Positions 191 to 51,040 are shown, counted from the stretch's first letter. The stretch: 64,000 nt of DNA from a virus (IMGVR_UViG_3300025949_000001:51996-115995), one strand, 5' to 3'. Made by a program: numbers and translations. The notes: a model not told the origin generated them from the letters alone.

Positions 191-669
191 GGCCGCACCG
201 CCGCGGTACCCGCGCCCTCGACCCAGCCGGGCACGACCGTGACCGGGATTCCCTCGGACCGCCACAGCTCGACGATCGCCGGGTTGTCGTCGTACGCGTG
301 CACCGGCCGGTACTGCTGCCGGATCTTCGCCAGGATCTCGCGCTTGACCACATGGTCGGGCCGGTAGTCTCCGTTCGCCCGCATCCACATCGCATCCGAG
401 GGCACGCCGTGCAGGGCGAGCCAGAACGCAGTGGAGTTGCGGAGCCGCGCCTCGCGCGCGGTCACGACCAGCACGGCGCGGGCCGCTGCGTGTTCGGCGC
501 GGGCGGCGTCCACGACCCAGGCGTTCGGGGGGCAGTTGACGGCGTCGCGGTGGAACGCGTCGAAGTTCTTGCGGTAGCCGTTGGCGGGGCCGCCGAGTAC
601 GTGGTGCCGGATGGCGCGCACGTCGCACAGGGTGCCGTCCATGTCGAACAGGACCGCCTCGGGCAGCAT
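187..669 (-). CDS. HAD-family phosphatase, polynucleotide kinase/3'-phosphatase (PseT C-terminal)-like
   Basis: FDMDGTL motif I, VVTAR, MRANGDYRPD..K, AYDDNP; matches the T4 PNK phosphatase domain pattern. Confidence 0.85.
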   Translation of the reverse strand: MLPEAVLFDMDGTLCDVRAIRHHVLGGPANGYRKNFDAFHRDAVNCPPNAWVVDAARAEHAAARAVLVVTAREARLRNSTAFWLALHGVPSDAMWMRANGDYRPDHVVKREILAKIRQQYRPVHAYDDNPAIVELWRSEGIPVTVVPGWVEGAGTAAVRP

Positions 670-1589
670 CAGGGCGCCGCCTTCGCGACGGTGTAGTGCT
701 CGGCGCGCACGCGGTAGACGCCTCGGGCGACTCGGACCACGAACCCATCGTTGGCGGCGTCACTGAGGAGCTGGTACGCGGCGCCGAGCGTCTTTCCGGT
801 TCGTTCGGCTAGCGACGGGGCCGTGATTGGGCCGATCCACCCGGCGAGCAACGCCCGATACTGCTTCGGCTGCGGCGTCCTGGCGCGTCGTGGCTGGCGC
901 GGTTTCAGCGCCCTTCGCTTTCGCGACGTCTCACGTGCGCAGGCGCGGCAATAGCGTTGGCCGTCGTACCATCGCGTGTTTTCCTCGGTCCACTCATGGC
1001 CGCTGCCGCACGCTGTTGCCCGAGTCAGTGACTTCGTGGCCGCGACGGAAGCCGTGCGCTTCGCTATCCACTCGGGCGACTGCTTCCTGCCGCATAGGGA
1101 GTCGCTCCGCTTTCGCAGCGTCTTCGCGCTGGGTTTCTTTCCCATGTTCGCGGCGGACAACTTCGCGCGCGTCTCGGGCGACCTGGGTTTGCCAATCTTG
1201 GCTTGAGCACTCTTACGTACAGACTCGGATGCCATTCGCCATGTGCCCCCTGAGACGCCGCCCGTGGACAAGTTGAGCAACGGCGCACCCGCGAGTCGCA
1301 GGCGTTCGATGTGCCGCCTTTCGGCGGCGTCTAGGCCGGTAGCGGGTATTGGCCCCTCGATGAGGAGGATTCCCGGCACCGCGCCGGCCTCGGCGAGCTC
1401 GGCAATCCAGCGGCATACGGGCCGGCTCGGCGAGCGGCGGTCCGCCAAATGCCCTTTCAGCCTGCGCTTCAGTGCTTGACGCGTCTGGCCGACGTACCGG
1501 ATGGTCCCATCGATGTCGCGAAGCCCGTAAATGACGCCCATGCCAGGCGTCGGCTTCGCCCGTTCCGCGTCGCAGGAATCAGCTTGCAT
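669..1589 (-). CDS. GIY-YIG homing endonuclease with NUMOD3-like repeats
   Basis: GVIYGL..RYVGQT..R motif; KPRSPETRAKLS/KKPSAKTLRKRS repeats; CGSGH..CRAC; GATAAT 6 nt before ATG 1589 (leaderless-type). Confidence 0.85.
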   Translation of the reverse strand: MQADSCDAERAKPTPGMGVIYGLRDIDGTIRYVGQTRQALKRRLKGHLADRRSPSRPVCRWIAELAEAGAVPGILLIEGPIPATGLDAAERRHIERLRLAGAPLLNLSTGGVSGGTWRMASESVRKSAQAKIGKPRSPETRAKLSAANMGKKPSAKTLRKRSDSLCGRKQSPEWIAKRTASVAATKSLTRATACGSGHEWTEENTRWYDGQRYCRACARETSRKRRALKPRQPRRARTPQPKQYRALLAGWIGPITAPSLAERTGKTLGAAYQLLSDAANDGFVVRVARGVYRVRAEHYTVAKAAP

Positions 1590-1627
1590 ACATCTATTAT
1601 CGCAGGTAGCGCCGACATTCCGAAGGT

Positions 1628-2338
1628 TCATGCGGCAGCTCGCGGAGCGATATAGTGCTGCGCCCGGACCCTCTTCAACCACCCCTCAACGACACCGTAA
1701 CTCGGCTCATCGGGCAGCGCCGTCCTGGCTGCGTCGAAGGCTGCGACCGTCTCGGCAATCAGCTTCTCTGCGGCGGTCGGGTCCTTCGCGACCTGCTCGC
1801 CGAAGTCGAGGTACTGCTGCGGGTCCTCTAGGGCCACCGTCAACCTCCCCGAGGTGTAAAGCTCAAGACCTTGGCGGCTCAGGCGCAGTAGGTGGCGCGC
1901 ATGTTTGGCCGTGCGCTTGCGAGTGTCCGCGCTGAAAGACCCGTCGCCCCGGTTGAGCAGTTTCCGGCACTGGGCGACCGCGTATCCGCAGTAGGCGTCC
2001 CTCACCAGGCGGGCGCTCGGGAAGGCGCTGCGAATGCCGACCAGTTCATCGCCAAGCGCCGTCTTGATCTCGTAACTCTCAAGGAAGAGCAGTTCAAGGA
2101 CGGTCGGGTTGGACTTGAGCATCAGCCTCGCAGCTTTGGCCGCCTCGTGATACGTCACGTCGGGTTTGGTGGTGACGATGGAGTCGTTGGGCGCGGTCAG
2201 GCCCATGAACCGGGTGGTGGGCCAGGTGAACACGCCGAGCCGGTCGATGTCGGAGTCGGGTCCGGCCAGGCCGTACGCGGTGGAGCCGACGACGCCGGCC
2301 AGCAGAACGCGCATGTCGGACTCCTCGGCGGCCGTCAC
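1628..2338 (-). CDS. Pol-beta superfamily nucleotidyltransferase (phage Nuc-transf type)
   Basis: GSTAYGL..DSDID motif, KSNPTVLELL, KHARHLLRL; GTG overlaps upstream TGA. Confidence 0.85.
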   Translation of the reverse strand: MTAAEESDMRVLLAGVVGSTAYGLAGPDSDIDRLGVFTWPTTRFMGLTAPNDSIVTTKPDVTYHEAAKAARLMLKSNPTVLELLFLESYEIKTALGDELVGIRSAFPSARLVRDAYCGYAVAQCRKLLNRGDGSFSADTRKRTAKHARHLLRLSRQGLELYTSGRLTVALEDPQQYLDFGEQVAKDPTAAEKLIAETVAAFDAARTALPDEPSYGVVEGWLKRVRAQHYIAPRAAA

Positions 2339-2880
2339 AGTGTGGTCTCCAGTTCGCGGATGTTGGCCGCCCACCCGGCGACCCGGTCCACGTCCTGCTG
2401 CCGGATGCCGAGGCTGATGTGCAGCAGCAGCGTCGGGATGCCGTCCTCGGTGCGCGTTTTCGCCCACTCGAAGTCGCCGGGCTCGAAGTCGTCGTCCAGC
2501 CATGCGAACGCCCGCTCGCCGACGTACGCCTCGACGGCGTCGCGCTTCCAGATTTGGCCGAACGGGAACGGTCCACGCGAGGGGAACTCGATCACCGGCA
2601 GTTGCGGCAGGCCGACCACGGGCGCCACGAGCCGGTTCGCCGAGTGCTCCCAGGTGGTGGCCCAGGCCAGGTCTACCAGGTGGGTCAGGGCGAGCAGCAT
2701 GGGTCCGTGCGCAGGGTTGAGCCAGACACGGATGGAGCGTTTGCCGCTCTGTGCCCAATGCCAGCCGTCCGCGCCGGTGCGGACATGCCGGGTGGTGTAT
2801 CCGTCGGGCCGCTGGGTGGGTTTCGCGCCGTAGGGGTTAAGCGGTCCGTCTACGTCGAGCAGGAGCAGGGGTTTGGTCAC
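2335..2880 (-). CDS. HAD domain protein (HAD_SAK_2-like)
   Basis: LLDVDGPLN, WATTW, FAWLDD motifs; AGGAGG RBS. Confidence 0.8.
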   Translation of the reverse strand: MTKPLLLLDVDGPLNPYGAKPTQRPDGYTTRHVRTGADGWHWAQSGKRSIRVWLNPAHGPMLLALTHLVDLAWATTWEHSANRLVAPVVGLPQLPVIEFPSRGPFPFGQIWKRDAVEAYVGERAFAWLDDDFEPGDFEWAKTRTEDGIPTLLLHISLGIRQQDVDRVAGWAANIRELETTL

Positions 2881-3052
2881 GTGTCCTCCTGGGTTCGGTT
2901 GATGGTTGCGTGTTCGCGGGTGTCGCGCGATGTGTTTCGGGCCGGCCGCGTCGGCTGCGTCTCGATCCGGTCGCGGTCCGGTCGCGCCGGCCCGTGCCGT
3001 ACGCGCCGGGCGTAGCGTGGTGGCCTGTCAGGATTCGAACAGTGGGGGGATC

Positions 3053-3511: not shown

Positions 3512-3609
3512 TCGGGCGGCGGCGCCGGACATGCGCCCGCGCTGTTCCTGCCGGGCGACCCGTCGCAGTCCTGCACGATCAGCGCGGGGTCGGACGCTCC
3601 GTAGCCGGG

Positions 3610-4770
3610 TCACGAGATGCCTTCCAGGTAGACGGACTGGTCCACGGGGTTGCGGTAGGGCTGGTATCCACCGGCGGCAAGGATGCGCTTAGCTTCCTCA
3701 CCCGCGCGGTCCGCCTCGGCGAGCGCGCGGCCGGTGGCGGTGGGGCGGGATTCTCCTACTGCGCGGGGGTGACAGTTAGGGCAGCGCCCGGGATGACTGG
3801 AGTCCCAGTCGATCATTCGGGTGGACTGCTCACACTCACCGCACCATGGCGGCCGACTACTACCAGCGCCTTCGTCTCTGCGGCGCGGTGCACCGAGGTC
3901 CTTGGCGCGGTAGATGGCGGTTCGTACGCGGTCGTTGGCGCCGGTCCAGTCGCGGTCGAGGGTGGCGATCAGGTCGGGCACCGTCCATCCGGCCGCGAGG
4001 GCCGCGGTGATGGGGGCGAGGAGTTGGGCTCGTTCGCTGCGGCCTGGTTGGCGTTGCAGGTCGAGTTTGTCGATGACGGTGTCCGCGTCGGGGTTGGGTT
4101 CTTGTTCGGCGTAGCCATCCCCCGCCGCCGCCCTAGGGCTTGCGTGGATCGCGACCGCTGGTCCGCTGGAGGTAGGAGGAGGTCTGTCTGTCTGAAAAAC
4201 GTCTGTATAAGGAAGGGGAACGGCTGAGCCGTTTTCGGTGCGACCTGCGGAAACGGTCGTTTGTGCAGGTGGGACCGGGACCGCCTGGGCCGTTTCCGGT
4301 CCCACCTGCGCGTTCGCATCATCCTGCCTGCTCGCGCCGACACCGGCTGAGCCGTTATCGGTCTGACCTGGCGTAATGAGGGTTTCCGCAGGTGGTACCG
4401 GCGACGGCTGAGCCGGTGTCGGCCCCGCCTGGGCGTTTACCGATTCAGCGTAGATTGCGATGATTGTCGTCATCCGGCCGTCGGCCGACCTGACCTGAGT
4501 GCGCACCAGGTGTCCGGCTGCGGCGAGTTCCTTGGCCGCCTCGAGGTAGGCGTCTCGGCCGCCGCCGCGCTTTCCGCTGCCGTAGTACTCAGCCACACCT
4601 GCGATGGAACTGAACTTGTTCCCGTCGATGAGCAGACGTGCGAGTAGGCCAAGTGCGGCGAGGGACAAGTCCAGGTTGCGTGCGGCCTCGTTGGGGAAGC
4701 GCTCGAAGCCGCCGCGGTTCTTCGACAGGCGGGTCACCTCGATCACGCGGCGCACCCTGCTAGAGCCCAA
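3610..4770 (-). CDS. phage replication initiator / replisome organiser (HTH)
   Basis: NEAARNLDLSLAALGLL..ELAAAGHL N-terminal HTH; repeat-rich linker; C-terminal PPWCGEC..RCPNCHP; start may be GTG 4746. Confidence 0.7.
   Translation of the reverse strand: MGSSRVRRVIEVTRLSKNRGGFERFPNEAARNLDLSLAALGLLARLLIDGNKFSSIAGVAEYYGSGKRGGGRDAYLEAAKELAAAGHLVRTQVRSADGRMTTIIAIYAESVNAQAGPTPAQPSPVPPAETLITPGQTDNGSAGVGASRQDDANAQVGPETAQAVPVPPAQTTVSAGRTENGSAVPLPYTDVFQTDRPPPTSSGPAVAIHASPRAAAGDGYAEQEPNPDADTVIDKLDLQRQPGRSERAQLLAPITAALAAGWTVPDLIATLDRDWTGANDRVRTAIYRAKDLGAPRRRDEGAGSSRPPWCGECEQSTRMIDWDSSHPGRCPNCHPRAVGESRPTATGRALAEADRAGEEAKRILAAGGYQPYRNPVDQSVYLEGIS
4221..4431. repeat. four ~27-bp iteron-like direct repeats inside rep gene (putative origin)
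   Basis: CGGCTGAGCCGTTTTCGG..ACCTG-like units start at 4221, 4282, 4344, 4405 (61-62 bp period). Confidence 0.65.
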
Positions 4771-4856
4771 TGCTGCAGATGTAGTAGGGCAAGCACTACG
4801 GTGACATCTTTGAAGAGGTGGTCAACTTCTTGTGAGAAGTTCCCGAGGGGAGACGC

Positions 4857-5600: not shown

Positions 5601-5614
5601 TTCCCGAGTGATCG

Positions 5615-5648
5615 AGAGCCCCGGTGCCCGCCGGGGCTCTTTTGTTTT
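5615..5648 (+). terminator. intrinsic terminator
   Basis: AGAGCCCCGG-6 nt-CCGGGGCTCT followed by a T-rich tract. Confidence 0.85.
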
Positions 5649-5679
5649 CTATGTACTCCATGAACTAACTAGATCCTAC

Positions 5680-5708
5680 TTGACTTCTTAACAGATGTCA
5701 CCCATGCT
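5680..5708 (+). promoter_or_regulatory. sigma70/HrdB-type promoter for a leaderless transcript
   Basis: TTGACT-17 bp-CATGCT, with ATG 6 nt downstream. Confidence 0.7.
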
Positions 5709-5714
5709 GGGGTT

Positions 5715-16253: not shown

Positions 16254-16544
16254 ATGCTCGCGATCACGCTCACACTGCTGGTTCTGGGCGCGCTGCTCGC
16301 CGCCTTCGGCACCGCCGGGTTCGCATTGAACTGGACGGCACCCGACCACGACAGCCTCCGGTACACCCAGGGCATCGCCAAGGCCGGGCGCCGGCTGTCC
16401 GCCGCCGGCCTGACGCTGTACGCCCTGCATTACGGCGCGAGCGGCCCGGCGCTGATTGCGCTGCTACTGGCCGCCGCGCTCGCACTCGCGACCTACCTCA
16501 CTCGAACAACGAGCACCTTATTGGCGGACGGTGGTGGCCGGTGA
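16254..16544 (+). CDS. three-TM membrane protein; target gene of the TnpB cassette (recoded C-terminus)
   Basis: AAGGAGG RBS; hydrophobic helices; last 16 codons include rare codons and parallel 17741-17791. Confidence 0.7.
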   Translation: MLAITLTLLVLGALLAAFGTAGFALNWTAPDHDSLRYTQGIAKAGRRLSAAGLTLYALHYGASGPALIALLLAAALALATYLTRTTSTLLADGGGR

Positions 16545-17791
16545 AGCAAGCAAAGAGGTTCCGGCTCTACCCGACGCCCACGCAGGAGCAGACCCTGCTC
16601 ACGCACTGCGCGCACGCCCGGTATGTGTGGAACCTGGCGATCGAGCAGCACTCCTGGTGGACGCCTCGGCGCGGACCTGCGCCGACGTTTGCGGCGCAGT
16701 GCCGCCAACTGACCGAGGCCCGCGCCGAGTTCGAATGGCTGCGCGAAGGCTCAGTAAACGTCCAGCAGCAGGCGCTGCGCGACTTCGACCAGGCTATGCG
16801 GCACTTTTTCAACCGTACCCACGGACGCCCCAGCTTCCGGAGTAAGCACCGCAACGAGGGGTTCCGCATCACCGACAGATGTGACGTGCAGAAACTCAAC
16901 AGGCGCTGGGCGCAGGTGAGGATTCCCAAGATCGGATGGGTGCGCTTCCGGCTGTCCACGGCGCTCCTGCCGGACGCGAAGTCCTACCGGGTGACCTGCC
17001 GCAACGGTCGGTGGCACGTGGCGTTCGCGGTCATTCCCGACCCGATCGAGCCGCCCGGTACCGGAGAACTGGTCGGGATCGACCGGGGCGTAACGATAAC
17101 CGCCGCACTCTCGGACGGGCGCACCTTGAACTGCCCTCAGTCGAGCGTCAAAGAACAAGCCCGCGTTCGCAAGCATCAGCGTCGCGCAGCCCGCGCGCCG
17201 AAGGGCAGCGACGAGAAGGGCGCCGAGTACGCGCAAGTCGCCAAACTGAAGGCGCGCGAGGCGGACCGGCGCAAGGACTGGGTGGAGAAGACCAGCACGG
17301 ATCTTGCGCGGCGTTTTGACCTGATCCGGTTCGAGAAGCTGAACATTCGGAACATGACCGCCTCGGCACGGGGAACCATCGAAGCGCCCGGCCGCAACGT
17401 CAGGCAGAAGTCCGGCCTGAACCGGGCGATCCTCGCCCAGGGCTGGGGGCAGCTTCGACTGCGCACCGGGCAAAAGGCGCCCGGCCGGGTTGAGGATGTC
17501 CCGGCGCCGTACACCTCGCTGCGATGCAGCGCCTGCGGGTGGATCGAGAAGGACTCGCGCAAGAGCCAAGCCGAGTTCGTCTGCGTGTCCTGCGGGTTCG
17601 CGTGCAACGCAGATGTGAATGCAGCAGTGAACGTCGCGGCGGGGCACGCCGCAGGGATGACGCCGTGCCAGCGGCCGAGCATCCGTGGACCTCGGCCCGT
17701 ACGGGCCGGAATCCTGCCTAGAGCGCAGGAGGGTGCCAACTACCTGACCGCCACCACCAACACCATCGTCCCGAGCGGAGCCACGCCGTGA
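16541..17791 (+). CDS. tnpB: TnpB RNA-guided endonuclease (IS200/IS605 type), no transposase
   Basis: KRFRLYPT..HARYVWN; RuvC D (GIDRG), E (FEKL), D (NADVNAA); CSAC/CVSC zinc finger. Confidence 0.93.
   Translation: MKQAKRFRLYPTPTQEQTLLTHCAHARYVWNLAIEQHSWWTPRRGPAPTFAAQCRQLTEARAEFEWLREGSVNVQQQALRDFDQAMRHFFNRTHGRPSFRSKHRNEGFRITDRCDVQKLNRRWAQVRIPKIGWVRFRLSTALLPDAKSYRVTCRNGRWHVAFAVIPDPIEPPGTGELVGIDRGVTITAALSDGRTLNCPQSSVKEQARVRKHQRRAARAPKGSDEKGAEYAQVAKLKAREADRRKDWVEKTSTDLARRFDLIRFEKLNIRNMTASARGTIEAPGRNVRQKSGLNRAILAQGWGQLRLRTGQKAPGRVEDVPAPYTSLRCSACGWIEKDSRKSQAEFVCVSCGFACNADVNAAVNVAAGHAAGMTPCQRPSIRGPRPVRAGILPRAQEGANYLTATTNTIVPSGATP
17640..17760 (+). ncRNA. putative TnpB omegaRNA 3' part and guide (guide from about 17741)
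   Basis: CGGCCCGTACGGGCCG hairpin, then GGAATCCTGC..GCAGGAGGGTGCCAAC resembling the IS605 right end; 5' boundary unknown. Confidence 0.6.
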
Positions 17792-18414
17792 ACCTCATCC
17801 CCAACCGCTGGCGCCGCGACCCGCGCCGGGCAGCCAAGAACATCTACTTCGCCATCGAAGAAAACCCCCGCACCGAGGCCGCCCGCGACACCCTGCGCCA
17901 CAGCAGCGACCCCGCGCAGCGCTACCACGCCCTCGACTTCCTCGCCGAGCGCGAACTGAGCCTCTACCGCACCCACGACGGCGCGTTCGGCCACCAGCCC
18001 TGGGCTGACGACATCGCCGGGGACGCCGCGACCGGTCTCGCCTACGGCGTGATGGCCCTGCGGCTGCTGCGCGCCCTCGAATGGGGCCGCACGGCCCAGC
18101 GGTCCTGGCGCTCCCACTGGCAGCCGATCGCCTGGGGCCGCGTCGACCTCACCGCTGCCGAGCAGGCGCTCGCCGACGCGTGCGGCCCGCTGCTCGACCT
18201 GCTGTCCAACGAGGACCCGACCGAGATCGCGGTGCTGTACACGCGCCTGTGGATCGCCGCCTACCCGATCATCGGCGGCCAAGCGGCCGAATGGATCGCG
18301 GTGCTCGGCAACGACTGGCAGTGCCGCGCCGCCGGGGTGCAGGACGGCCCCGACACCATCCTCACGATCCCGGACGCCCGCTACAGCCCGGACGCCACCC
18401 CCAACCCCGCATAG
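17788..18414 (+). CDS. hypothetical protein
   Basis: GTGA overlap, high GC3. Confidence 0.65.
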   Translation: MNLIPNRWRRDPRRAAKNIYFAIEENPRTEAARDTLRHSSDPAQRYHALDFLAERELSLYRTHDGAFGHQPWADDIAGDAATGLAYGVMALRLLRALEWGRTAQRSWRSHWQPIAWGRVDLTAAEQALADACGPLLDLLSNEDPTEIAVLYTRLWIAAYPIIGGQAAEWIAVLGNDWQCRAAGVQDGPDTILTIPDARYSPDATPNPA

Positions 18415-25084: not shown

Positions 25085-25413
25085 TGGGCGGCGGAAATCG
25101 GTCTCGGCCGCCCCGTGTTCGGGCGAGTGCACCTATCGCATTACGGCTTGTGGGCCCAGTGTTGCTCGCTTTTATGTTGCTCGCGGTGCTGCGCTTCGGG
25201 CGATAAGCGGGATGCAGTCTGCATCCCGGATTTCATGCGACGGCGAATAGGTCAAGCCCCGGCTAGTCCGGGTACTGCGTCGCTTCCCATGGCTGCGGCT
25301 TCGGCCGGAACGAGATCACATCCTGGCCGTCGCCCGTGTGGGTCCATTCGGAGCGGGCACCTGCCCCGCTGAATCTCAGTAAGTCTCAGTCCTTCTAGGC
25401 GTATACTGGGCGA

Positions 25414-25983
25414 GTGAAGCTTTCGGAGTGGGCGCGCCGCGAAGGCGTGCACTACCAGACCGCGTGGGAGTGGGCGAAGAACGGGCGCATGCCCGTGCCC
25501 GCCTACCAGACCCCGTCCGGGACATGGATGGTGCGCACCGAACCCGACGCGCCCACCGGGCGCGTCGTCGCCTACGCCCGCGTCTCCAGCGCCGACCAGA
25601 AGCCCGATCTCGAGCGCCAGGCCGGGCGCGTGGTGACGGGCGCGACCGCCCGAGGTCTCGCCGTCGCCGAAGTCGTCACCGAGATCGGTTCCGGACTGAA
25701 CGGCGAGCGCCGCAAACTGCACCGGATCCTCGCCGACCCCACCGCCGCAGTGATCGTGGTCGAGCACCGCGACCGGCTCGCGCGCTTCGGTGTCGAGCAT
25801 CTCGATGCCGCCCTGCAAGCGAACGGCCGCCGCATCGTCGTCCTCGAACACGACGAGACCAGCGACGACCTCGTACGGGACGTGGCCGAGGTACTCACCT
25901 CGATGTGCGCCCGGCTGTACGGGCGCCGCTCCGCCAGGAACCGGGCCGCGCGCGGCATCGCCGCCGCGACGGGCGAGCGCTGA
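25414..25983 (+). CDS. tnpA: IS607 serine-recombinase transposase
   Basis: MKLSEWARREGVHYQTAW HTH; YARVSS..QKPDLERQ; EHRDRLARFG; TATACT 6 nt before start. Confidence 0.95.
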   Translation: MKLSEWARREGVHYQTAWEWAKNGRMPVPAYQTPSGTWMVRTEPDAPTGRVVAYARVSSADQKPDLERQAGRVVTGATARGLAVAEVVTEIGSGLNGERRKLHRILADPTAAVIVVEHRDRLARFGVEHLDAALQANGRRIVVLEHDETSDDLVRDVAEVLTSMCARLYGRRSARNRAARGIAAATGER

Positions 25984-25986
25984 TCC

Positions 25987-27366
25987 ATGGCCGTGCAGGC
26001 CTACCGGTTCGCCCTCGACCCGACGCCGGCCCAGGCGCGCAACCTCGCGCGGCATGCCGGCGCGGCGCGGGTCGCGTTCAACTGGGGACTCTCGGCGGTC
26101 AGGGCGAACTTGTCCCAGCGTGAGGCCGAACGCTTCTACGGCATCGACGGCGACGACCTTACCCCGGCGCTTGGCTGGTCGATGTATGCGCTGCGCAAGG
26201 CCTGGAACCAAGCCAAGGGCGACATAGCTCCATGGTGGTCGGAATGCTCGAAAGAGGCGTACGCCAGCGGGCTGGAGCAACTCGCCCGCGCGTTGAAGAA
26301 CTGGTCCGACTCCAAACGCGGCAAGCGCGCCGGCCGACCGGTCGGGTTCCCGCGGTTCAAGGCGAAGCGTCGCGCTGCGCCGTCGGTGAGATTCACTACC
26401 GGGACAATCCGCGTCGAAGCCGACCGCATGCACGTGACGCTGCCGGTGCTGGGCCGGATCAAGACGCACGAGTCCACGCGCAAATTGGAGCGCAGGGTCG
26501 CGAACGGCACCGCGCGGATCCTGTCCGCGACCGTGCGCCTTGAGGCGGCCCGCTGGTTCGTCGCGTTCACCGTCGAAATCCGGCGACCCGAGAAGTCCCC
26601 GCGCCGACCGGACGCGGTAGTCGGCGTCGACCTGGGAATCAAGACGCTGGCCGTCCTGTCCGAGGGCGAGCCGGTCGGGAACTCGCGGTACTACGATGCG
26701 GCGCGCCGGAAGTTGGCCCGCACCTCGCGCACCGTTTCGCGCCGCCAAGGACCGGACCGGCGCACCGGGCAGGCCCCTTCTAGCCGGTGGGTGCGGGCGA
26801 ACGCCGCGCGCAACAGAGTCCACCGCCGGGTTGGAAACCTGCGCCGCGACGGGATCCACAAACTCACCACCGCGCTGGCCCGCGAGTACGGCACGGTCGT
26901 GGTCGAGGACCTGAACGTCGCCGGGATGGTCCGCAACCGGCGGCTCGCACGCGCGATCTCCGACGCCGGGTTCGGCGAGATTCGCCGCCAGTTGGCGTAT
27001 AAGGCGGCGTGGAACGGCGGCCGGCTCGCCGTGGCGGACCGCTGGTTTCCCAGTTCCAAGACGTGCTCGGGCTGCGGGGCAGTGAAACCCAAACTGTCCC
27101 TGGCCGAGCGCACCTACACCTGCATCGAATGCGGACTGGTCTTGGATCGGGACCTGAACGCGGCGCTCAACCTCAAGCAGTTGGTTGAGCGCACCGTCGC
27201 CGGGAGTGGCCCGGAGACGTTAAACGGACGTGGAGCCGACCGTAAGACCAGCGTGCTGGCAGGTGGCCGTGAAGCGTCTACCCCGCACCCGGCTCTCGCC
27301 GGGGTAAGACGGGGACTCTTGCCGGGCAACCGGCAAGTCCTAGGCAGGCATTCGCTGAAACTCTAG
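25987..27366 (+). CDS. tnpB: IS607 TnpB RNA-guided endonuclease
   Basis: QAYRFALDPT; GVDLG, VEDL, DRDLNAA; CSGC/CIEC. Confidence 0.95.
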   Translation: MAVQAYRFALDPTPAQARNLARHAGAARVAFNWGLSAVRANLSQREAERFYGIDGDDLTPALGWSMYALRKAWNQAKGDIAPWWSECSKEAYASGLEQLARALKNWSDSKRGKRAGRPVGFPRFKAKRRAAPSVRFTTGTIRVEADRMHVTLPVLGRIKTHESTRKLERRVANGTARILSATVRLEAARWFVAFTVEIRRPEKSPRRPDAVVGVDLGIKTLAVLSEGEPVGNSRYYDAARRKLARTSRTVSRRQGPDRRTGQAPSSRWVRANAARNRVHRRVGNLRRDGIHKLTTALAREYGTVVVEDLNVAGMVRNRRLARAISDAGFGEIRRQLAYKAAWNGGRLAVADRWFPSSKTCSGCGAVKPKLSLAERTYTCIECGLVLDRDLNAALNLKQLVERTVAGSGPETLNGRGADRKTSVLAGGREASTPHPALAGVRRGLLPGNRQVLGRHSLKL

Positions 27367-27753
27367 GAACGGTCGCGCTCCCAGTCCTCGCCGAACACCA
27401 GCTCGTGGCTCGGCACGCCAAGCTGGCTCACTAGGAACAGCACCTGCGTCGGGGCCTCACGCGGCGTCTCGTCGGGCTCGACCTTGAACAGCGCGTCGAT
27501 CGGCCCTTCCGGGAAGGCCACCGAGCAGCGTGCGGGCGGCATGGTCGCCCCGTCGCGCAACCTGATGTCTACGGATCGCGAGAGGTTGGCGTCGGTCTGC
27601 TGCGCGAGCAAGCCGAGGGCTGTTTCCAGTGGCGAGCGCAGCACCATCTCGACGCGCGTGCTGTCGATCAACGCGGTGGGGGCCGGGCCAGGCGACCGTC
27701 AGGAGCATCTCGCGGGACGGGGTGAGGGGCATGGCTCAAGTGTCTCGCACGAC

Positions 27754-28403: not shown

Positions 28404-28789
28404 AGCGTCTTCGGCTTCAGGTCCGCGACGTCCTCCACGTACGTGCCGCCGCCGTTTCCCGTGGCCGCCTTGCCATCGGGCAGGTAGTTCAGGAAATAGT
28501 CCAACCGGCCGCCGACCACCACCAGGTCGTAGCGCTGCAGCTTGCCCGTGAACCCCTCGCGGGCGCAGCCCCAGGCGCGCAGCAGCATGAACCGGTCGAT
28601 AGGCGCGGTGAACTGCGCGGTCTGGCCGCACCGCGAGCAGGTGGCGTCGGTGAGAGTGAACTCCGGCGCGGCAGGATGGGGGTGGGCGCCGGTAGTCTGC
28701 CAGTCGTGGCGCTCGCGGTCGTTTTTGATCCGCGTCGGGGTGGCCGGTTTGGCGTCCCGTGGTTCGGCTGCTCGCCGTCGCCAGTTCAT
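28400..28789 (-). CDS. hypothetical protein
   Basis: Operon position; CSRCG. Confidence 0.55.
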   Translation of the reverse strand: MNWRRRAAEPRDAKPATPTRIKNDRERHDWQTTGAHPHPAAPEFTLTDATCSRCGQTAQFTAPIDRFMLLRAWGCAREGFTGKLQRYDLVVVGGRLDYFLNYLPDGKAATGNGGGTYVEDVADLKPKTL

Positions 28790-32116: not shown

Positions 32117-32710
32117 ATGCCGCGCGCCGCCGACACGAAAACCGACCCCGCTGCGGCGAAGACCGCCCAGGCCAAGTGCGACATGGCCGCCGTCACCCAC
32201 GCCGAGGCCGTCCTGCGCCTACCCGGAACTCCGTACGTCGTGCTCTCCTTCGACGGCCCCGTCGAGCCCGAGCGACTCGCCCAAGCCGCCGACCGGCTCG
32301 CGCGCCGCGACAAGGTGCCCGTCATCCTCGGCGGCGACGGCCTCAGGGTCAGCGAAATGATCGAGGAAGACGCGCTCGAGACCGTCGAGAAGACCCAAGA
32401 GCGGCAAGCGCAATGGGGTGAAGCCTTCGGCGCCGCACTCCAGGCGGTCGACACCTTCACCGCCGATGAACAGGCCGAACGCGCCGACGAGGACGGGGGC
32501 GTTGACGAAGACGAACCCGAACCGCAGCCCGCCGAGATCATCCTCGCGTACCTGCGCGAACACGGACCCGGCTCACCACAGGACATCGCCGCCGCCACCG
32601 GCCTGCCGCGGCGCACCACCACCGTGGAACTGGTGCGCATGACCAACGCGGGCACCGTGCACAAAAACGGACTGGCCTACGCCGTCAGTGCAGCCTCAGC
32701 AGAAGCGTGA
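32117..32710 (+). CDS. protein with C-terminal winged HTH
   Basis: ILAYLREHGPGSPQDIAAATGLPRRT..L.RM..G.V. Confidence 0.65.
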   Translation: MPRAADTKTDPAAAKTAQAKCDMAAVTHAEAVLRLPGTPYVVLSFDGPVEPERLAQAADRLARRDKVPVILGGDGLRVSEMIEEDALETVEKTQERQAQWGEAFGAALQAVDTFTADEQAERADEDGGVDEDEPEPQPAEIILAYLREHGPGSPQDIAAATGLPRRTTTVELVRMTNAGTVHKNGLAYAVSAASAEA

Positions 32711-33179
32711 CGATCACACCCAGCGTCGCGACCGCGCCCACCAGAATCACCCACCCCGCGTTCAACCCGCTGCTACGCCCCTGGCTCGTATCCATCCGGG
32801 TCGTCAGCGCCGCGAGCTGAGTCGCGACCACCTCCACCCGATCCGACACCGCCTTGATCTGCAGCAGGCCTTCGACCTTCGTCATAAACGTCAGAACCTG
32901 ATCGTTCAACTGCCCCCGGAACTCGTTCACCGCCGCGAACCTCTCGCCCGACGCGACCTCCGCCTTCGCCACGGCCTTCTCCTGCGCCGCCAACGCCGCG
33001 GCGATCGCCTCCTTCTGCGCGGCGAACGCGGCGCTCACCGCGATCTGCTGGTCCGCGAAACGCTGCCCCGTCAGTTTCTCCGCCGCCGCCAGGGAGATCG
33101 CGGCGACGTTCGCGGCGTGCTGGATCGCGGCGTCGGTGTAGACGCGCAGGATGTCGATCTCGCGCTGCGGCTGAGGCAT
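32685..33179 (-). CDS. coiled-coil protein with C-terminal TM (lysis-region)
   Basis: GGGAG RBS; ERFAAVNEFRGQL; C-terminal hydrophobic helix. Confidence 0.7.
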   Translation of the reverse strand: MPQPQREIDILRVYTDAAIQHAANVAAISLAAAEKLTGQRFADQQIAVSAAFAAQKEAIAAALAAQEKAVAKAEVASGERFAAVNEFRGQLNDQVLTFMTKVEGLLQIKAVSDRVEVVATQLAALTTRMDTSQGRSSGLNAGWVILVGAVATLGVIVTLLLRLH

Positions 33180-33193
33180 GGCGCTCCCTGCGT

Positions 33194-33360
33194 CTAGGGC
33201 GTGCGGCGCGGCAGCGGCACGAGCTGCAGCGGCCACAGTGCGGAGCGCGGCGCGGGGGCGGGGGATGGTGCGCTGGGGCGGTTGTAGCCGTGGGCGTCGA
33301 GACGGCGGGCGGATTCACGAGTCCCCGCATGGCGGTGAGCGTGACGGGGGTGACGGAGCT
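33194..33360 (-). pseudogene. displaced original 3' end of the collagen-like gene
   Basis: ...PAPAPRSALWPLQLVPLPRRTP* aligns in register with ...PKPTPKRWVDLLFGVPFYRRGM*. Confidence 0.55.
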
Positions 33361-33441: not shown

Positions 33442-33936
33442 ATGGCTGCTATAGGGGGCGCTTACACGCCCATCAGCACCGAACGGCGCTTCGCCCTCAA
33501 GGTGGACAAGACGGGCGAAGGTGGCTGTTGGAACTGGACAGGGAAGATCAATGAGGGCGGATACGGGATCTTCACGATCAAGCACCACACCTTGCGCGCC
33601 CATCGAATCGCCTGGGAGTGGCATCATGCACTGCCGATTCCCGAGGGGCAGATCATCCGCCACATGTGCGATAACAGGCGCTGCGTGAACCCGTCCCACC
33701 TGGTTGCCGGGACGTATTCCGACAACAACGCCGACGCCGTGCGTCGGCAGCGCGCCGCGACGCTGGTTGGCGAGAAGGTGCCGTCGGCCAAACTGACCGT
33801 AGACAAAGTGCAGTGGGCTCGCCAGCAGTTCGATTCTGGGACGATGAGCAAGACGGCAATCGCCCGTGAACTCGATGTCGCACCAACGACGATCGATGCC
33901 GTCGTGTTGCGCAAGAGTTGGAAGCACGTCAAATAA
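33442..33936 (+). CDS. HNH homing endonuclease
   Basis: [33 protein letters not shown]; C-terminal HTH; TAGAAT upstream. Confidence 0.92.
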
Positions 33937-33940: not shown

Positions 33941-34798
33941 TCACATGCCTCGCCGATAGAACGGCACCCCGAACAGCAAGTCAACCCATCGTTTAGGAGT
34001 GGGCTTCGGGGTGCCGTTCTTCACCATTGGAGCCGACGCTGTCGCCGAGGATGCCGCAGGAACGCTCGGGGCAAGCGGGGAAGTCCCGGCCGATGGTATC
34101 GCTGATGACGTTAGTGTCTGCGATGGGGAAGCGGAGGCTGACGCAGATGCCGTGGATGTCGGCGGGCAGGTGTAATGAGGCGCCGGCGTCCCGTTGTCGG
34201 GTACGCACTCATACGTCACACCATTAACCTCGAAGGCCCAGCCCGCGGGGGGGCTGCCGGGGGCGCCATCTACACCTGGATTCCCCTGTTTTCCGTCTTG
34301 TCCATTTTCTCCCGGGCTACCGGGTGGACCGCTGGGCGCGGGGTGCGCGGCCATGTACGCGGCCACCGAAGCGTCGATCTGCGCCGCCGTCGCATCTCTG
34401 CCCGGCGCGGGCGGGTGCGCCGACAGATAACTCGCGACATCGGCCTCGACCTGCGCGGCGGAAACCCTCCCGGTTGGCGGGTTCGCGGCCAGGTACCCGT
34501 CGACCGCGAGCTGCACCTGCGCGTCCGACGGCCCCGGACCCCGAACACCCTGAGGGCCCGCGACACCCGAGACCACGGCTGCCGGCGGCGGCACGTTCGG
34601 CGTGGCGCCCAGCGAGATGATCTGCGCCCTGGCGGAAGCAACCGCCGCGGCGAGACCCTCCACCGCCGCGCCCTGCGCGTCGATCTTGCGGCCGTCCGCT
34701 TTCTGCCCCAGCAGCAGGAACACCACCAGGCCGAGGCCCAGCACGCCGCACAGCAGCCACGCGACGGGCCACCAGCGCGGCGAGAACCGGCCCTGCAT
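33941..34798 (-). CDS. membrane-anchored collagen-like protein (lysis cassette)
   Basis: N-terminal TM; GPPGSPGENGQDGKQGNPGVDGAPG; GVTYEC..YTC. Confidence 0.75.
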   Translation of the reverse strand: MQGRFSPRWWPVAWLLCGVLGLGLVVFLLLGQKADGRKIDAQGAAVEGLAAAVASARAQIISLGATPNVPPPAAVVSGVAGPQGVRGPGPSDAQVQLAVDGYLAANPPTGRVSAAQVEADVASYLSAHPPAPGRDATAAQIDASVAAYMAAHPAPSGPPGSPGENGQDGKQGNPGVDGAPGSPPAGWAFEVNGVTYECVPDNGTPAPHYTCPPTSTASASASASPSQTLTSSAIPSAGTSPLAPSVPAASSATASAPMVKNGTPKPTPKRWVDLLFGVPFYRRGM

Positions 34799-45969: not shown

Positions 45970-48950
45970 GACAGGGCCGCCGCGAGTTGCCGCATCATCT
46001 GCGCCTGCTGTTCGGGTCCGGGGGCTTGCGGGCCGTAGTAGTTGAACGCGACCTGCGGCCCGGCTGCGGCGGCCTGCGGCCGCGATTGCATGGCGGTGGT
46101 CTGGCCGTGGGTCAGGACATAGCCGTCCTGGCCGGACAGGAATGTCTCTTCGCCGTGTTCTCCGACCGGCGTCAAAGTGCCCGCCGTGACCGGTCCGCCG
46201 CCCGCGCGCCCGGCGCCGAGCGCCTTGCCGCCGCCGGTCAGATCGACGCCCCCGCCCGGCATGTTGTGCGTGACCGCGTAAACCTGGACCGTGCCGTACG
46301 AGCTGTTGATGTCGTTGAGCAGATGCTTGACCGCCTGCTGCGCGGAACCGGTGTTGGCGTTGACGTTGATCGGGATGTTCTTGGGCAGCTGATACAACTC
46401 GTCTGCGAGTTCGCGCACTTTTTTCTTGTTCAGCCCGGCCTTGTCGGCCGCGTCGATGAACGCGTTCTTCTCCGCGAGCAGCTTCCCGTTCGCGTCGCTG
46501 TACGCGGCGGAGGCGCCCTTCGTGGACACCTCGCTCTGGTACAGCGCGATCGCGGCCTTCTGCGCGGAGGACGCGATACCCGCGAACACCTGGACATTGC
46601 GCGCGCCCTTGACGTTCGTGTCATCGAGGCTCGCGCCGTTGGCGTTGACGGCGGCGCTGACGCCGTCCAGCGCGATGGTGAACGATGCCTGGGAGGTGAG
46701 CAGGCTGCTCTCGGTGTCGTTCATCGCCTGCAATACCGACCCGTACGCCGAACCGCCGGACGCGGCCAGTTGGTAGGAGGCGACGGACGCGGCGAGCTGC
46801 TGGTTCAGTTGGCTCTGGCCGTCGCCCAGGTTCAGCGCCGCGACCGTGTTGTCGCCGGTGCTCTGCGCTTTCTCCGTGAGCTTCTGATACTCGGCGTCCA
46901 GCGTGGCGTTGAAAATGCTCGTAGTGTTGTTCAGCGCCGCCGTCGCGGCGTCCAAAGCGGTCTGCTTGTTGATCGCGTCCGCGACCTGCTGCGTTTGCGC
47001 CTTGACCGAGTTGAGCAGCTGCTGCGTCGAGTCCGTCAGGGTGTTCGACGCTTCGGCGCCCTGCGCGAGGCGCACGCTGCCGGTCGACATCGCCTGGTTC
47101 AGCTGGTTCTGGCCCCCGACCATCTGCACGCTGGAGCCGTACAGGGTGTTGACGGCCACCGCGGTCTGCTGATTCGCCTGGCCCAGTTGCGTCTGCCCGG
47201 TCAGCGACGCCAAGGTTGCCACCTGCTGCTGGCGTGAGACCTCGTTGGACTGGCTGGTGATCGCGGCCAGTTGCGACATGGCGGACTTGTTGCCGGTGGC
47301 GGCCTCGGTGAGCAGCGAGAGCGAAACCCCGGCGTTCTTGGCCTCGTCGGCGAGACCGGACGTCTGCGCCTGCTGCGCGACGAACGCGGAGGTGGACTGC
47401 CCGATCTTTCCGGCGTCCTGCGCGACAGCGGCGGCCAGATCGCCCTGGCTCAGCGTGATGGCCTTGGTGGCGTCGTCCGCGTTGAACAATGCGGCGGCCA
47501 GCCCGGAGGCCAGGCCGATACCGGCGCCGATGGCGATGCCCCACGGGCCGCCGACCACGCCGGCCATTTTCGCGAGCGTCCCGGACGCCCCGGACGCAGC
47601 ACCCTGCATCTTGCCCAGCAGTCCGCCGGACTCCTCCGCCTTGTCCGCCAGTTTCGAAAGGCCTTCGGCTCCCGACAGGAGTCCGCTTTGGATTTTCGGG
47701 TCCAATTTCAACGCGCTGACTGCGCCGAGGACTCCGCCGACGACCGCAGGCGAAGAAACGCCCCGCATGGCGTCGTCCAGCCCGTTGATCACATGGGTGA
47801 GGCCGATCAGCGGCACGGAGGTGGCCGTGCCCGCTGCCCCGATCACCGACCCGACTGTGTGGATCGTGTTGCCCACGGCGTTGAGAGTCGCCTCAAGCGC
47901 GCTTCCCTGAGCGTTGGCGTTGTTCACGACCCCGGTGAAGAATCCGCCGACGTCCGCGCCGAGCACGGGCAGCGACTTGGAGAAGTCGGTGACGATCACT
48001 TGGCTGGTGGAGAGCGCCTTGGACATCCCGGGCAGCAGGCCGCCGACGAATCCGGTTAGGCCCGTGGTGACGGTGGCGATGTCGGGTTCGGCGGCAGAGA
48101 ACAGTTCCTTGAAGTCGGGCCTTAGTTCCCGCACCTGCTTGTCGACTGCGAGCAGATCGGCATGCAACTCAGCCGTCGCCGGCGCAGCGGCCTGTTCGAT
48201 CGAGGTGGCGGCATCGTGGCCGACCTGCGCCATGTCGGCGGCGATGACCTTGTTCTGCTTGAGGACTAGTGCGGTCACGCCGACCATGGCGGTGCCCAGG
48301 CCGGCGGCCAGCAGCGAGCCGCCGATTGCGCCCGCTCCGGCGAGTGCGGCGATGATCAGCGGGGACATGCCCTGACCGGCGTCTTTGGCCGCCTTCTCGC
48401 CCTTGCCCTTGATCTCCTCATCGAGATCGTCCAGGCCTGGGGCGACTCCCTTGCCGATCTCGTCGCCAATGCCCTTGCCGATCTCGTCGCCGACGGTCTG
48501 GCCGGCGGAGATGAACCGGCCGCGCGAGTCGCGCAGGCGCGTGGTGACGGCGGTGGCGGCCTCGTCGGCGACTTTGCTGCCGCTTTCGCGCACGGCCGGG
48601 ATCGCGCCCTGGATGCCCGCGTCGATCCCCTTGCCGGCCTCGGTGCCGACCTTGCCGCCGAGGCCTTTGCCGATGCGTTCAGCCTCGTCCATGATCGGCG
48701 CCTCGGCGTCGGCGACCCCGCGGACGATCCCGTCCCCGACGCTTTTGCCGATGTCGGCCGCGTCGCGCTCCAATACCGGCTTGGCGTCCAGCAGCCCCTT
48801 GGACAGGCCCGAGGCCATCCGGGGGGAGGATCCCGCGCTCGCGCCCTCGACCGCTGCGGCGATCTTCGCCTTCCAGTCGGCCTCGTCGATGTTCGCTTTG
48901 ACGTCCATCCACGCCGAACCGGCTTTGAACCCTTCAGGCACCCCTGTCAC
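45966..48950 (-). CDS. tape measure protein
   Basis: 994 aa, A/G-rich helical; C-terminal RAGGGPV..VGEHGEE. Confidence 0.88.
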   Translation of the reverse strand: MTGVPEGFKAGSAWMDVKANIDEADWKAKIAAAVEGASAGSSPRMASGLSKGLLDAKPVLERDAADIGKSVGDGIVRGVADAEAPIMDEAERIGKGLGGKVGTEAGKGIDAGIQGAIPAVRESGSKVADEAATAVTTRLRDSRGRFISAGQTVGDEIGKGIGDEIGKGVAPGLDDLDEEIKGKGEKAAKDAGQGMSPLIIAALAGAGAIGGSLLAAGLGTAMVGVTALVLKQNKVIAADMAQVGHDAATSIEQAAAPATAELHADLLAVDKQVRELRPDFKELFSAAEPDIATVTTGLTGFVGGLLPGMSKALSTSQVIVTDFSKSLPVLGADVGGFFTGVVNNANAQGSALEATLNAVGNTIHTVGSVIGAAGTATSVPLIGLTHVINGLDDAMRGVSSPAVVGGVLGAVSALKLDPKIQSGLLSGAEGLSKLADKAEESGGLLGKMQGAASGASGTLAKMAGVVGGPWGIAIGAGIGLASGLAAALFNADDATKAITLSQGDLAAAVAQDAGKIGQSTSAFVAQQAQTSGLADEAKNAGVSLSLLTEAATGNKSAMSQLAAITSQSNEVSRQQQVATLASLTGQTQLGQANQQTAVAVNTLYGSSVQMVGGQNQLNQAMSTGSVRLAQGAEASNTLTDSTQQLLNSVKAQTQQVADAINKQTALDAATAALNNTTSIFNATLDAEYQKLTEKAQSTGDNTVAALNLGDGQSQLNQQLAASVASYQLAASGGSAYGSVLQAMNDTESSLLTSQASFTIALDGVSAAVNANGASLDDTNVKGARNVQVFAGIASSAQKAAIALYQSEVSTKGASAAYSDANGKLLAEKNAFIDAADKAGLNKKKVRELADELYQLPKNIPINVNANTGSAQQAVKHLLNDINSSYGTVQVYAVTHNMPGGGVDLTGGGKALGAGRAGGGPVTAGTLTPVGEHGEETFLSGQDGYVLTHGQTTAMQSRPQAAAAGPQVAFNYYGPQAPGPEQQAQMMRQLAAALS

Positions 48951-49586
48951 CTCCTCCCATCCTGGTCGCGGCCTGGATCACCAGGGCCGGGTTGGCGCCC
49001 ACCCAGTCGTCGAAACTCATCTCCGCAGCCGCCTGTCCGCGTCCCTGCGCCGCCGGGCCGTCCTGCTGCGCGCGTGCCCGCGCGGCCGCGAGGGCGACCG
49101 CGCCGCCGTACACCTCCAGCCGGTAGGCCAGCGCGAAGAACTCCGGGCCCGACAGGTCGCTGCCCTCGATCGGGCGCACCCGGTGGAAGCGGCTGAAGTC
49201 GCTGGCCACATCCCGCCAGTAGGCCAGGACCCAGGCGACTTGCGCGGCGCGCTGCTCGATCAGGCTTTTGGGTCCTCCGGTCCGCCCAGCAGGGCGTCGC
49301 GCAGTGCGGCGCCGATGTCGGGCATGTGGTCGCGGGTGAGCGCCGGGTCCTCCTCGAGCCGCGTGTACTGCTCGCTTCCGAGCAGCTTCATCAGCGCCCA
49401 CGTCAGGGCGTGGTCGGAGCTGGAGGCGTAGAGCAGCCGCAGGTAGGTCAGCCCCCAGCCGACGGGGATGTGCGCGGGGAAGGTGTAGATCGTGTCGGCG
49501 ACCTTGAACCCCGGCACCCGGTCTTCGGCCGGGCCGCCCGCCTCGTCGCCCGTCGCGGGCGCGGCGTTCGCTTTCGTAGTGGTCAT
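48934..49586 (-). CDS. tail assembly chaperone pair (gpG 49260-49586; gpGT via -1 frameshift)
   Basis: CCCAAAA slippery site (49266-49272) just before the gpG stop; -1 frame continues PKSLIEQ.. to 48934. Confidence 0.8.
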
Positions 49587-49591
49587 GGGCG

Positions 49592-50167
49592 TCACGCGGT
49601 CTGGTCGATGTTGGCCCACGCGGGGATCGAGTCGGACACCTCGTAGAGGGTCCACGTCGCCGCGAGCGTGGAGATCTTCCCGTCCTGCACGAACGCCTTC
49701 TGCACCTTCGGCTTCGACAAGGCCTTACGGCCGATCAGGCGGCGGCGGAACCCGCCCGGCGCCCAGCCGTCCAGCAGCACCGCCCCGTACTGCGGCACCG
49801 GGGGCAGGCCGCCGACCTGCGCCTCCTGCTTCGCCCACCCGGTGCCGGATGTCGAGGTGACCAGGTTGTTCATGATGATCGCGTAGTTCGCGAGCGTGGC
49901 CTCGGCCATCGCGACGGTGATCGTGGTCATCGCGGTGCCCGCGACATACCGCGCGCCGATCGGGCGCAGCCGCTGATCGACGATCAGATCGGTGGACGGC
50001 AGGTCGTCCTCCCACACGAACCCGCCGCTGGTGTCGCCGACGTCCGTCCACACGGCAGGGTCGGGCGCGGTGTAGGGGGACATGGATGAGTCGGCGGGTT
50101 CGAGCGCGCCGAACGCGCCGTAGTAGAACTTGCCGACGCCGGACACGACGTTATTCGGGTTGCCCAT
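49592..50167 (-). CDS. major tail protein
   Basis: NVVSGVGKFYYGAFG..WTDVGDTSGG..MAEATLAN; position before chaperones. Confidence 0.8.
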   Translation of the reverse strand: MGNPNNVVSGVGKFYYGAFGALEPADSSMSPYTAPDPAVWTDVGDTSGGFVWEDDLPSTDLIVDQRLRPIGARYVAGTAMTTITVAMAEATLANYAIIMNNLVTSTSGTGWAKQEAQVGGLPPVPQYGAVLLDGWAPGGFRRRLIGRKALSKPKVQKAFVQDGKISTLAATWTLYEVSDSIPAWANIDQTA

Positions 50168-50233
50168 GGCGGTGTTGCTCCGTTTCGTTCCCGTCTACCG
50201 GGGACTCGTGGGTGGTGCGGGGTGTTGCTGCGG

Positions 50234-50432
50234 CTAGCGCTTCCTGGCGCCTTTACGGACCGGGAGGGCGCGGTAGCCGGTCTTCTTGCCTCGGGTGGCG
50301 ACGATCTGCTCAGCCCATTTTTTGGCGAAGGGCTTCTTTGTTGCATATAGAAAGCGGTTGTCGCCACTGTGCCTTGGAATGCATCGGTCCAGGGGACTTG
50401 CGCTTCCCGCTGGACTTCTTTGTGGAGGCCAT
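50234..50432 (-). pseudogene. small basic virion-operon protein with a 7-nt frameshifting insertion
   Basis: Deleting 50357-50363 gives 63 aa ..HSKAQWRFLYATKKPFAKKWAEQ.. Confidence 0.55.
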
Positions 50433-50437
50433 CGTGG

Positions 50438-51040
50438 TTAGATCACCTCCTCGAGATAGGTTTTCGCGGAATCCCACCAGTCGGGGCGTTCCACATAATG
50501 CAAGACCATGTTGCAGACGCGGCATAATGCTCCCCGCACCTGACCGGTTTTGTGATCGTGATCAACGCAGGTCGCTTTTTGCGTCCGACAGATCCAGCAG
50601 AGGCCGTCATGCCGGGCGGCCAGCCCGTCCCATTCCTTCTCGGACAAGCCGTATCGACGCAACCTGGCCCGCGCTGACTTGCTGGGCGTGCATTCGAAAC
50701 AGATCCTCTGTCTACTGCTCGTCGGTTCGTAGGCCTGACCGCACTTTGAGCAAGTCGCAGTCGAAGGTCGTCCACCCGAGGGGTTCTTCACCAGGGCGCG
50801 CACCTGGACCATGTCGCGGACCGACACGGCACATTTTTTCGAGCACCGAGATTGTGTACGCCAGTTACGCGTGCGGAAAGAAGAACCACAGCCAGGGCAT
50901 ACCATCGCTGGATGGCGGCATTCAAATGAGCAGAATTTTTGGCGGTTGCTCGACGGCTGGAAAAGGTCGCCACACGTGATGCACGGGCGCTTCTCGCTAC
51001 TAACATTCATAACTTCAGGGATATCTTCTTCTGCTATCAC
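50438..51040 (-). CDS. endonuclease VII-type (HNH) free-standing endonuclease
   Basis: RRYGLS..CWIC..VDHDHKTGQVRGALCRVCN; N-terminal CxxC repeats; lower GC. Confidence 0.88.
   Translation of the reverse strand: MIAEEDIPEVMNVSSEKRPCITCGDLFQPSSNRQKFCSFECRHPAMVCPGCGSSFRTRNWRTQSRCSKKCAVSVRDMVQVRALVKNPSGGRPSTATCSKCGQAYEPTSSRQRICFECTPSKSARARLRRYGLSEKEWDGLAARHDGLCWICRTQKATCVDHDHKTGQVRGALCRVCNMVLHYVERPDWWDSAKTYLEEVI

Follow-up and report, generated by a model that had tools for sequence, protein, structure and literature searches.

Three nucleases of different classes occupy gene ends in one Streptomyces-type phage genome, each between a divergent substitute tail and the displaced native tail

Introduction

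The closest described counterparts of the loci reported here are the "gene hybrids" formed by mobile open reading frames (mORFs) in fungal mitochondria, namely in atp6 of Allomyces macrogynus and in atp6, atp9, cox2, and nad3 of Glomus sp. (PMC3630166). In these hybrids, a gene core is followed by a divergent in-frame C-terminus, an endonuclease open reading frame (ORF) of the GIY-YIG or LAGLIDADG type, and the native C-terminus (C*); the native copy is near-identical to that of a close relative, and the inserted copy is divergent (PMC3630166). Here, we describe the same architecture in a 64,000-nucleotide stretch of viral DNA (IMGVR_UViG_3300025949_000001:51996-115995; "the window" denotes this whole stretch), in which a GIY-YIG, a TnpB, and an HNH nuclease gene each interrupt the end of another gene, hereafter the host gene. 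An initial annotation of the window, made from the sequence alone, took the pattern not to be a described system, a view that the fungal hybrids contradict. The loci in the window differ from the mORF hybrids in that they belong to a bacteriophage genome, the HNH gene lies on the opposite strand, one of the nucleases is the RNA-guided TnpB, and the native tail that is retained also includes the region where translation of the next, overlapping gene starts.

Two further groups of elements are related. In the intronless homing of the Seg and Mob endonucleases of T-even phages (PMC13565253), free-standing GIY-YIG and HNH nucleases with DNA-binding modules likewise reside in phage genomes, spread would likewise be by cutting a coinfecting relative, and flanks are co-converted, as in the hybrid genes described here. 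However, the Seg and Mob genes lie between genes and distinguish self from non-self by a few substitutions, whereas the cassettes in the window interrupt gene ends, carry a whole substitute tail, and retain the native one. The TnpB proteins of IS200/IS605 and IS607 elements (PMC10055086, PMC10690162, and PMC13565253) share with the transposase-free ("solo") TnpB of the window the RuvC triad, the zinc finger, the RNA scaffold at the right end, a guide taken from the DNA just outside that end, and an empty site with a matching target. Unlike ordinary TnpB elements, the solo TnpB has no transposase, left-end hairpin, or Arc gene, and its left end is replaced by a 52-nt target homologue that completes the host gene; the ordinary form is represented in the window by an IS607 copy. 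That TnpB might home into coinfecting phages is treated as a theoretical possibility only in a 2026 review of OMEGA systems (PMC13565253).

We found no account in the literature of this layout for phages or for TnpB. Synthetic cleave-and-rescue and home-and-rescue drives link a nuclease to an uncuttable copy of the sequence of its target gene. The cassettes in the window differ from them in being natural elements, in supplying a gene tail only, and in having a putative function.

Results

A common layout at three of the four nuclease sites

The viral record is 116 kb long, with direct terminal repeats and ~70% G+C, and the window takes up its final 64 kb. The phage is a soil Streptomyces-type one. 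The window has genes similar to those of large Streptomyces phages, BRock and Alone3 among them; a megablast search with 20 kb of the sequence found no close cultured relative. Genes were called by codon statistics, and nuclease domains were assigned with Pfam and PHROGs, which bore out the four nucleases named in the initial annotation: GIY-YIG, TnpB, HNH, and endonuclease VII (EndoVII). The empty-site comparison used G001, a close syntenic relative of 109.5 kb with direct terminal repeats. Most proteins of the window have counterparts in it with 70-100% amino acid identity, and all four named nucleases are absent from it. G002, G004, and G006 are further relatives.

At three of the four sites (GIY-YIG, TnpB, and HNH at sites 1, 2, and 3), the order is gene body, replacement tail with a low G+C content at third codon positions (GC3), nuclease, and displaced native tail. 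Each of the three nuclease ORFs sits within the 3' part of a conserved gene, and the sites are empty in G001. The inserted divergent C-terminus is in frame with the host gene, and the ORFs are intact. The common order that the initial annotation had proposed for these genes is therefore real, and it spans protein-guided and RNA-guided nucleases. When scored against 3321 gene-tail pairs of the window, the three tail pairs reached P ~3e-4, 3e-4, and 4.5e-3. GC3 is 0.67, 0.60, and 0.80 in the replacement tails of sites 1, 2, and 3 versus 1.00, 0.93, and 0.93 in the displaced tails, the host mean being 0.89. Comparison with nuclease-free relatives had been named beforehand as the refuting test, and G001 carries each of the three gene ends once, in the displaced type.

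Chance similarity and ORF artefacts were ruled out by the tail-pair scores and by the nucleotide comparisons.

The displaced tail is nearer to that of G001 than the replacement tail is, with 50/52 versus 28/52 nt matching at site 2 and 59/65 versus 36/65 nt at site 3; at site 1, the comparison with relatives concerns amino acid type only. Replacement and displaced tails share 30-57% of their residues, so the replacement tails are not synonymous rewrites. The earlier description as "duplication plus recoding" was thus imprecise: two copies of the tail are present, but this degree of residue sharing and the apparently imported allele at site 3 do not fit recoding. Judged from the alignments, the inserted C-terminus is probably foreign at site 3 and in part at site 2, and at site 1 it may be either imported or locally duplicated.

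Site 1: GIY-YIG in an RlaP nucleotidyltransferase gene

1628-2338, minus strand: host gene, RlaP-family nucleotidyltransferase (Pfam RlaP; PHROG nucleotidyltransferase)
1628-1672, minus strand: replacement tail, the last 15 codons of the RlaP gene, with rare codons and ending RVRAQHYIAPRAAA
669-1589, minus strand: GIY-YIG/NUMOD3 homing-type endonuclease, whole gene (core 714-1589; PF01541 and PF07460)
669-713, minus strand: displaced native RlaP tail, RVRAEHYTVAKAAP, in frame with the GIY-YIG ORF

The GIY-YIG ORF is open as far as 1682, and its product also has a PHROG homing-endonuclease C-terminal region. Its stop codon overlaps the ATG of a PNKP-type phosphatase gene (187-669). The displaced and replacement tails are identical at 8 of the last 15 residues, and nucleotide homology between the window and G001 breaks off at 1665. 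The GIY-YIG gene is absent from G001, G002, and G004, in which RlaP directly abuts the phosphatase gene and has one tail. The nearest natural tail to the displaced one is that of G002.

The nucleotidyltransferase and the polynucleotide kinase/phosphatase (187-2338, minus strand) form an RNA-repair-like pair that is also found in cultured Streptomyces phages. In Alone3, an Endonuclease VII gene lies directly upstream of the pair.

Site 2: a solo TnpB in a membrane-protein gene

16254-16544, plus strand: host gene, a hybrid 96-aa membrane protein ending YLTRTTSTLLADGGGR
16493-16544, plus strand: replacement tail with rare codons
16541-17791, plus strand: solo TnpB ORF (own part 16541-17680; Pfam and PHROG)
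17623-17739, plus strand: omega RNA (right-end element RNA, reRNA) scaffold at the right end of the TnpB element
17740-17791, plus strand: displaced native tail and guide template, YLTATTNTIVPSGATP, closing the TnpB ORF

The host gene is G001-like in residues 1-57 and resembles another natural allele in residues 58-86. Natural tails of this gene are near-invariant in nucleotides, and the replacement tail differs from them in almost every codon. The TTA leucine codon is very rare in Streptomyces-type genomes; one is present at 16517-16519 in the replacement tail.

The GTG start codon of TnpB overlaps the stop codon of the replacement tail. Alignment to TnpB chains in the Protein Data Bank (PDB) showed that the RuvC D/E/D triad (GIDRG, FEKLN, and NADVNAA) and the zinc finger are present. 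The genome contains no Y1 transposase, and the solo TnpB has no tnpA. Two resolvase-domain genes lie away from it, one of them belonging to an IS607 element (25352-27370). The left-end consensus and subterminal hairpin of relatives were not found at its left end. Between the gene body and the TnpB start are 49 nt, which code for the replacement tail and are preceded by CGAC, a sequence like a target-adjacent motif (TAM).

A covariance model trained on the right ends of 31 actinomycete TnpB elements, the window left out, detected the scaffold (37.2 bits, E 6e-9); Rfam gave no match to an omega RNA family. The right end, ..GGATGTCAA, is kept in ~70 of the 75 actinomycete TnpB relatives examined, and the flanks diverge beyond it. 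As the scaffold ends at 17739, the guide would be templated from 17740, where the native tail begins. G001 is identical to the guide region over the initial 22 nt; the replacement tail matches it at 13 of the first 20. The displaced tail overlaps the GTG of the next gene (17788-18414), for which neither viral contigs nor G001-G005 gave relatives. Judging by the left flanks of genomic TnpB relatives, the TAM would be (T/C)CAC. At the matching place, natural alleles have CCAC in G006 and CGAC in G001. In an independent soil metagenome run (X2), contigs join 16405 to 17735, as an empty form of the site would; these are contigs of a relative and count as weak evidence.

Other viral TnpB contigs provide further context. 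No tail duplication was found at L034-L036 and L039. In these four, a divergent ribbon-helix-helix (Arc-like) gene and a TAGAAT-type promoter lie ~150-250 nt upstream of TnpB, which is probably leaderless there. The solo TnpB in the window has neither feature and is translationally coupled to the host gene. In L037, a solo TnpB of the same clade lies between exact 16-nt direct repeats (2445-2460 and 3745-3760). The right copy is in the guide position, and the left is ~47 nt before the TnpB start, as far away as in the window; the repeat sequence makes up a small hairpin.

Site 3: HNH in a collagen-like membrane-protein gene

33941-34798, minus strand: host gene, a hybrid collagen-like membrane protein ending KRWVDLLFGVPFYRRGM
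33941-34310, minus strand: putatively imported 3' part including the replacement tail; homology to G001 breaks at 34311
33442-33936, plus strand: HNH_3 homing-type endonuclease (PF13392), antisense to the host gene and absent from G001 at this site
33194-33258, minus strand: displaced native tail, RSALWPLQLVPLPRRTP plus stop codon

The HNH_3 protein has a C-terminal helix-turn-helix (HTH)-like region. The last 17 residues of the displaced tail are identical to the protein tail of G001, and 15 nt separate the tail from the ATG of the gene that follows (32685-33179). Database homologues of the host gene fall into two tail families, ..GVPFYRRG. (replacement) and ..VPLPRR.P (native). Near residue 155, the host protein switches from resembling the homologue P0005 and G001 to resembling the homologue P0002: residues 30-155 are 68% identical to P0005 and 50% to P0002, residues 156-215 are 88% identical to P0002, and residues 261-285 are 80% identical to P0002 versus 32-39% to P0005 and G001. 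GC3 falls at the switch from 0.87 to 0.63 (122 codons), coinciding with the homology break at 34311. These comparisons indicate that the replacement is an imported natural foreign allele, with ~122 codons co-converted.

Two metagenomic phage loci, L132 and L133, have an HNH protein 70-75% identical to that of the window together with a foreign-type tail, an antisense HNH gene, and a displaced native-type tail. Their downstream contexts differ, one having a terminator instead of a downstream gene. Foreign tail and HNH thus recur as a unit at this position in different phages. In the viral contigs, the GIY-YIG and HNH relatives found were distant ones only, and contigs from X2 gave no clear joint across the HNH site. 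Outside the window, in the first half of the phage genome (G000), there is a further HNH_3 domain match (28567-28743) in a region that differs from G001, where the layout is not readable.

Site 4: EndoVII beside a replaced 5' end

50438-51040, minus strand: Endonuclease VII domain (PF02945) with three N-terminal CxxC zinc ribbons
50336-50437, minus strand: replacement 5' part, atypically coded, of the small gene that follows EndoVII; G001 homology resumes at 50335

The atypically coded 5' end that the initial annotation had noticed in the gene following EndoVII is real. No clear displaced copy of the 5' end of this small gene is kept, and the site is a 5'-end replacement without a retained copy, the mirror case of sites 1-3. 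The small gene, which encodes a basic protein (50168-50437, minus strand), is intact in G001 (~62 codons) and split between two frames in the window by an apparent insertion of 7 nt following ..AQW. Possible readings are a pseudogene, an error of assembly, and a frameshift site.

An ordinary IS607 element as an internal contrast, and an insertion in G001

25352-27370, plus strand: complete IS607-type element with the second TnpB of the window (serine recombinase 25414-25983; TnpB 25987-27366)

This second TnpB was absent from the initial annotation. Relative to G001, which is contiguous there, the insertion is precise, at a ..TTCGG/GG.. site. The gene at 27363-27671 (minus strand; 130 codons) loses 29 codons to the element, its orphaned end being at 25263-25351. 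The element supplies two codons and a stop codon only, with no replacement tail, and its right flank, the prospective guide, is the body of the truncated gene. Thus, the transposase-bearing IS607 element is without a rescue tail, whereas the three transposase-free cassettes have one. Contigs from X2 join 25339 to 27371, the empty form, again as weak evidence from contigs of a relative. A second metagenome run, X1, from which the record probably stems, gave filled forms only, although contigs cannot show the absence of empty ones.

G001 in turn has its own HNH gene and a LuxR-type regulator (50084-51823 of G001) between a WhiB-like gene and the next gene; the corresponding site lies outside the window, and the genome to which the window belongs is empty there. 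No convincing tail duplication was seen at this insertion.

Discussion

What the sequences show is the architecture itself, empty counterparts of the sites in a relative, host genes that are hybrids, a scaffold for the guide RNA, catalytic motifs that are intact, and an HNH cassette that recurs in other phages. The best reading of these observations is that the sites are footprints of nuclease-driven homing that builds gene hybrids, not products of one shared system. On sequence grounds, we consider that sites 1-3 probably (at a rough probability of 0.7) each hold a selfish homing cassette composed of a nuclease gene and a heterologous copy of the end of the gene that it interrupts.

Here, we propose how such cassettes would spread. 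In a mixed infection, the nuclease would cut a relative without the cassette at its intact gene end. For GIY-YIG and HNH, recognition of the site would be by protein contacts, and for TnpB it would be through the omega RNA, with the guide from the displaced native tail. The break would then be repaired from the cassette-bearing genome, with one crossover in the gene body, giving the hybrid host gene, and the other in the native tail and the downstream gene. The carrier would be spared in that its target is split, the replacement tail is too divergent for recognition, and the native tail is without its upstream half or, for TnpB, without a TAM. The replacement tail would keep the host protein at full length. 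The native tail would, at sites 1 and 2, keep the ribosome-binding region of the next gene and its stop/start overlap; it would also serve as a homology arm and, for TnpB, as the guide. Break repair combined with selection against harming the host phage could lead to the same result for each nuclease class, with no common machinery needed. At the EndoVII site, the corresponding event would be co-conversion of the 5' end with no copy retained.

Several observations weigh against this interpretation. The GIY-YIG and TnpB cassettes are seen in this genome only, with no close relatives in viral contigs (the metagenome scan was made for HNH), and among the viral TnpB loci examined, no other adjoins the membrane-protein gene of site 2. 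Both tails of site 1 are of one allele type, closest to that of G002, so either import or local duplication followed by divergence may have produced them. Among 28 natural homologues, none matches the final 10 residues of the replacement tail at site 2, a stretch that simple import of a natural allele therefore fails to explain. G001 has CGAC instead of (T/C)CAC at the TAM position, so that it may not be cut. The frameshifted small gene at site 4 indicates that not every cassette keeps its neighbor intact.

The proposal can be taken further. The substitute tails may be an evolved, heritable part of each mobile unit, and the cassettes would then be natural elements that cut the rival allele and carry a resistant spare. 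Such elements would have arisen convergently in protein-guided nucleases and in a transposase-free TnpB that would work between coinfecting phages solely as an RNA-guided homing endonuclease, taking its guide from the displaced gene end. We advance this view tentatively and put it at slightly less than an even chance.

A different explanation is that the sites are scars of one-off illegitimate recombination, in which each nuclease gene came in a single time along with part of a foreign homologue, the tails are passive leftovers, and the nucleases no longer home, being inactive or serving the phage. The restriction of the GIY-YIG and TnpB cassettes to this genome would fit, as would the position of all four sites at divergence boundaries between the window and G001, which is typical of mosaic joints, and the lack of a G001 counterpart for the gene downstream of the TnpB site. 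However, two divergent phages that differ in what lies downstream have the HNH cassette in the same layout, the catalytic motifs of TnpB are retained beside a well-scoring scaffold, and the position of the TnpB guide agrees to the nucleotide with where the native tail starts. We regard scars as unlikely.

We consider it less likely still that the tails were duplicated in place, with the upstream copy then diverging under selection against self-cutting and against deletion by recombination between repeats, so that no foreign donor was involved. The shared allele type of the site 1 tails agrees with such an origin, as do the last 10 codons of site 2, which resemble no natural allele, are changed at almost every codon, and use rare codons; moreover, a departure from G/C-ending codons would itself lower GC3. 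Against it, the site 3 tail and ~122 upstream codons match the foreign P0002 allele (80-88%) and not the native lineage, residues 58-86 at site 2 match another natural allele, and the level of residue sharing between the tails is not that of synonymous rewrites.

Dedicated phage- or host-encoded machinery that duplicates tails for any nuclease gene, which the occurrence of three nuclease classes in the same order in one genome might suggest, is highly improbable: the sites have no sequence, repeat, or gene in common, their junctions differ (one nuclease is antisense, the other two being in-frame fusions on the strand of the host gene), EndoVII and the IS607 TnpB break the pattern within the genome, the HNH insertion specific to G001 is without duplication, and fungal mitochondria have the layout without such machinery (PMC3630166). 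The single shared pattern put forward in the initial annotation thus does not hold throughout, as EndoVII keeps no copy and the IS607 TnpB is without a rescue tail. There is no sign of shared machinery, and the likeness among sites 1-3 is what break repair and selection could produce by convergence.

In annotation, the terminal codons of the nuclease ORFs at sites 1 and 2 should be read as displaced host sequence and excluded from the enzyme, and short "orphan" gene ends behind nuclease genes can be used as markers of past homing. The genome brings together three nuclease classes, for which a relative empty at all their sites is available, and two TnpB genes, one solo with a rescue tail and one in an ordinary IS607 element with none. 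If the cassettes are active, it would be a one-genome test bed for how nucleases invade phage coding sequence without killing the phage and for the origin of hybrid genes and mosaic boundaries. The TnpB cassette, if active, would be an example from nature of RNA-guided homing between viruses that is independent of a transposase.

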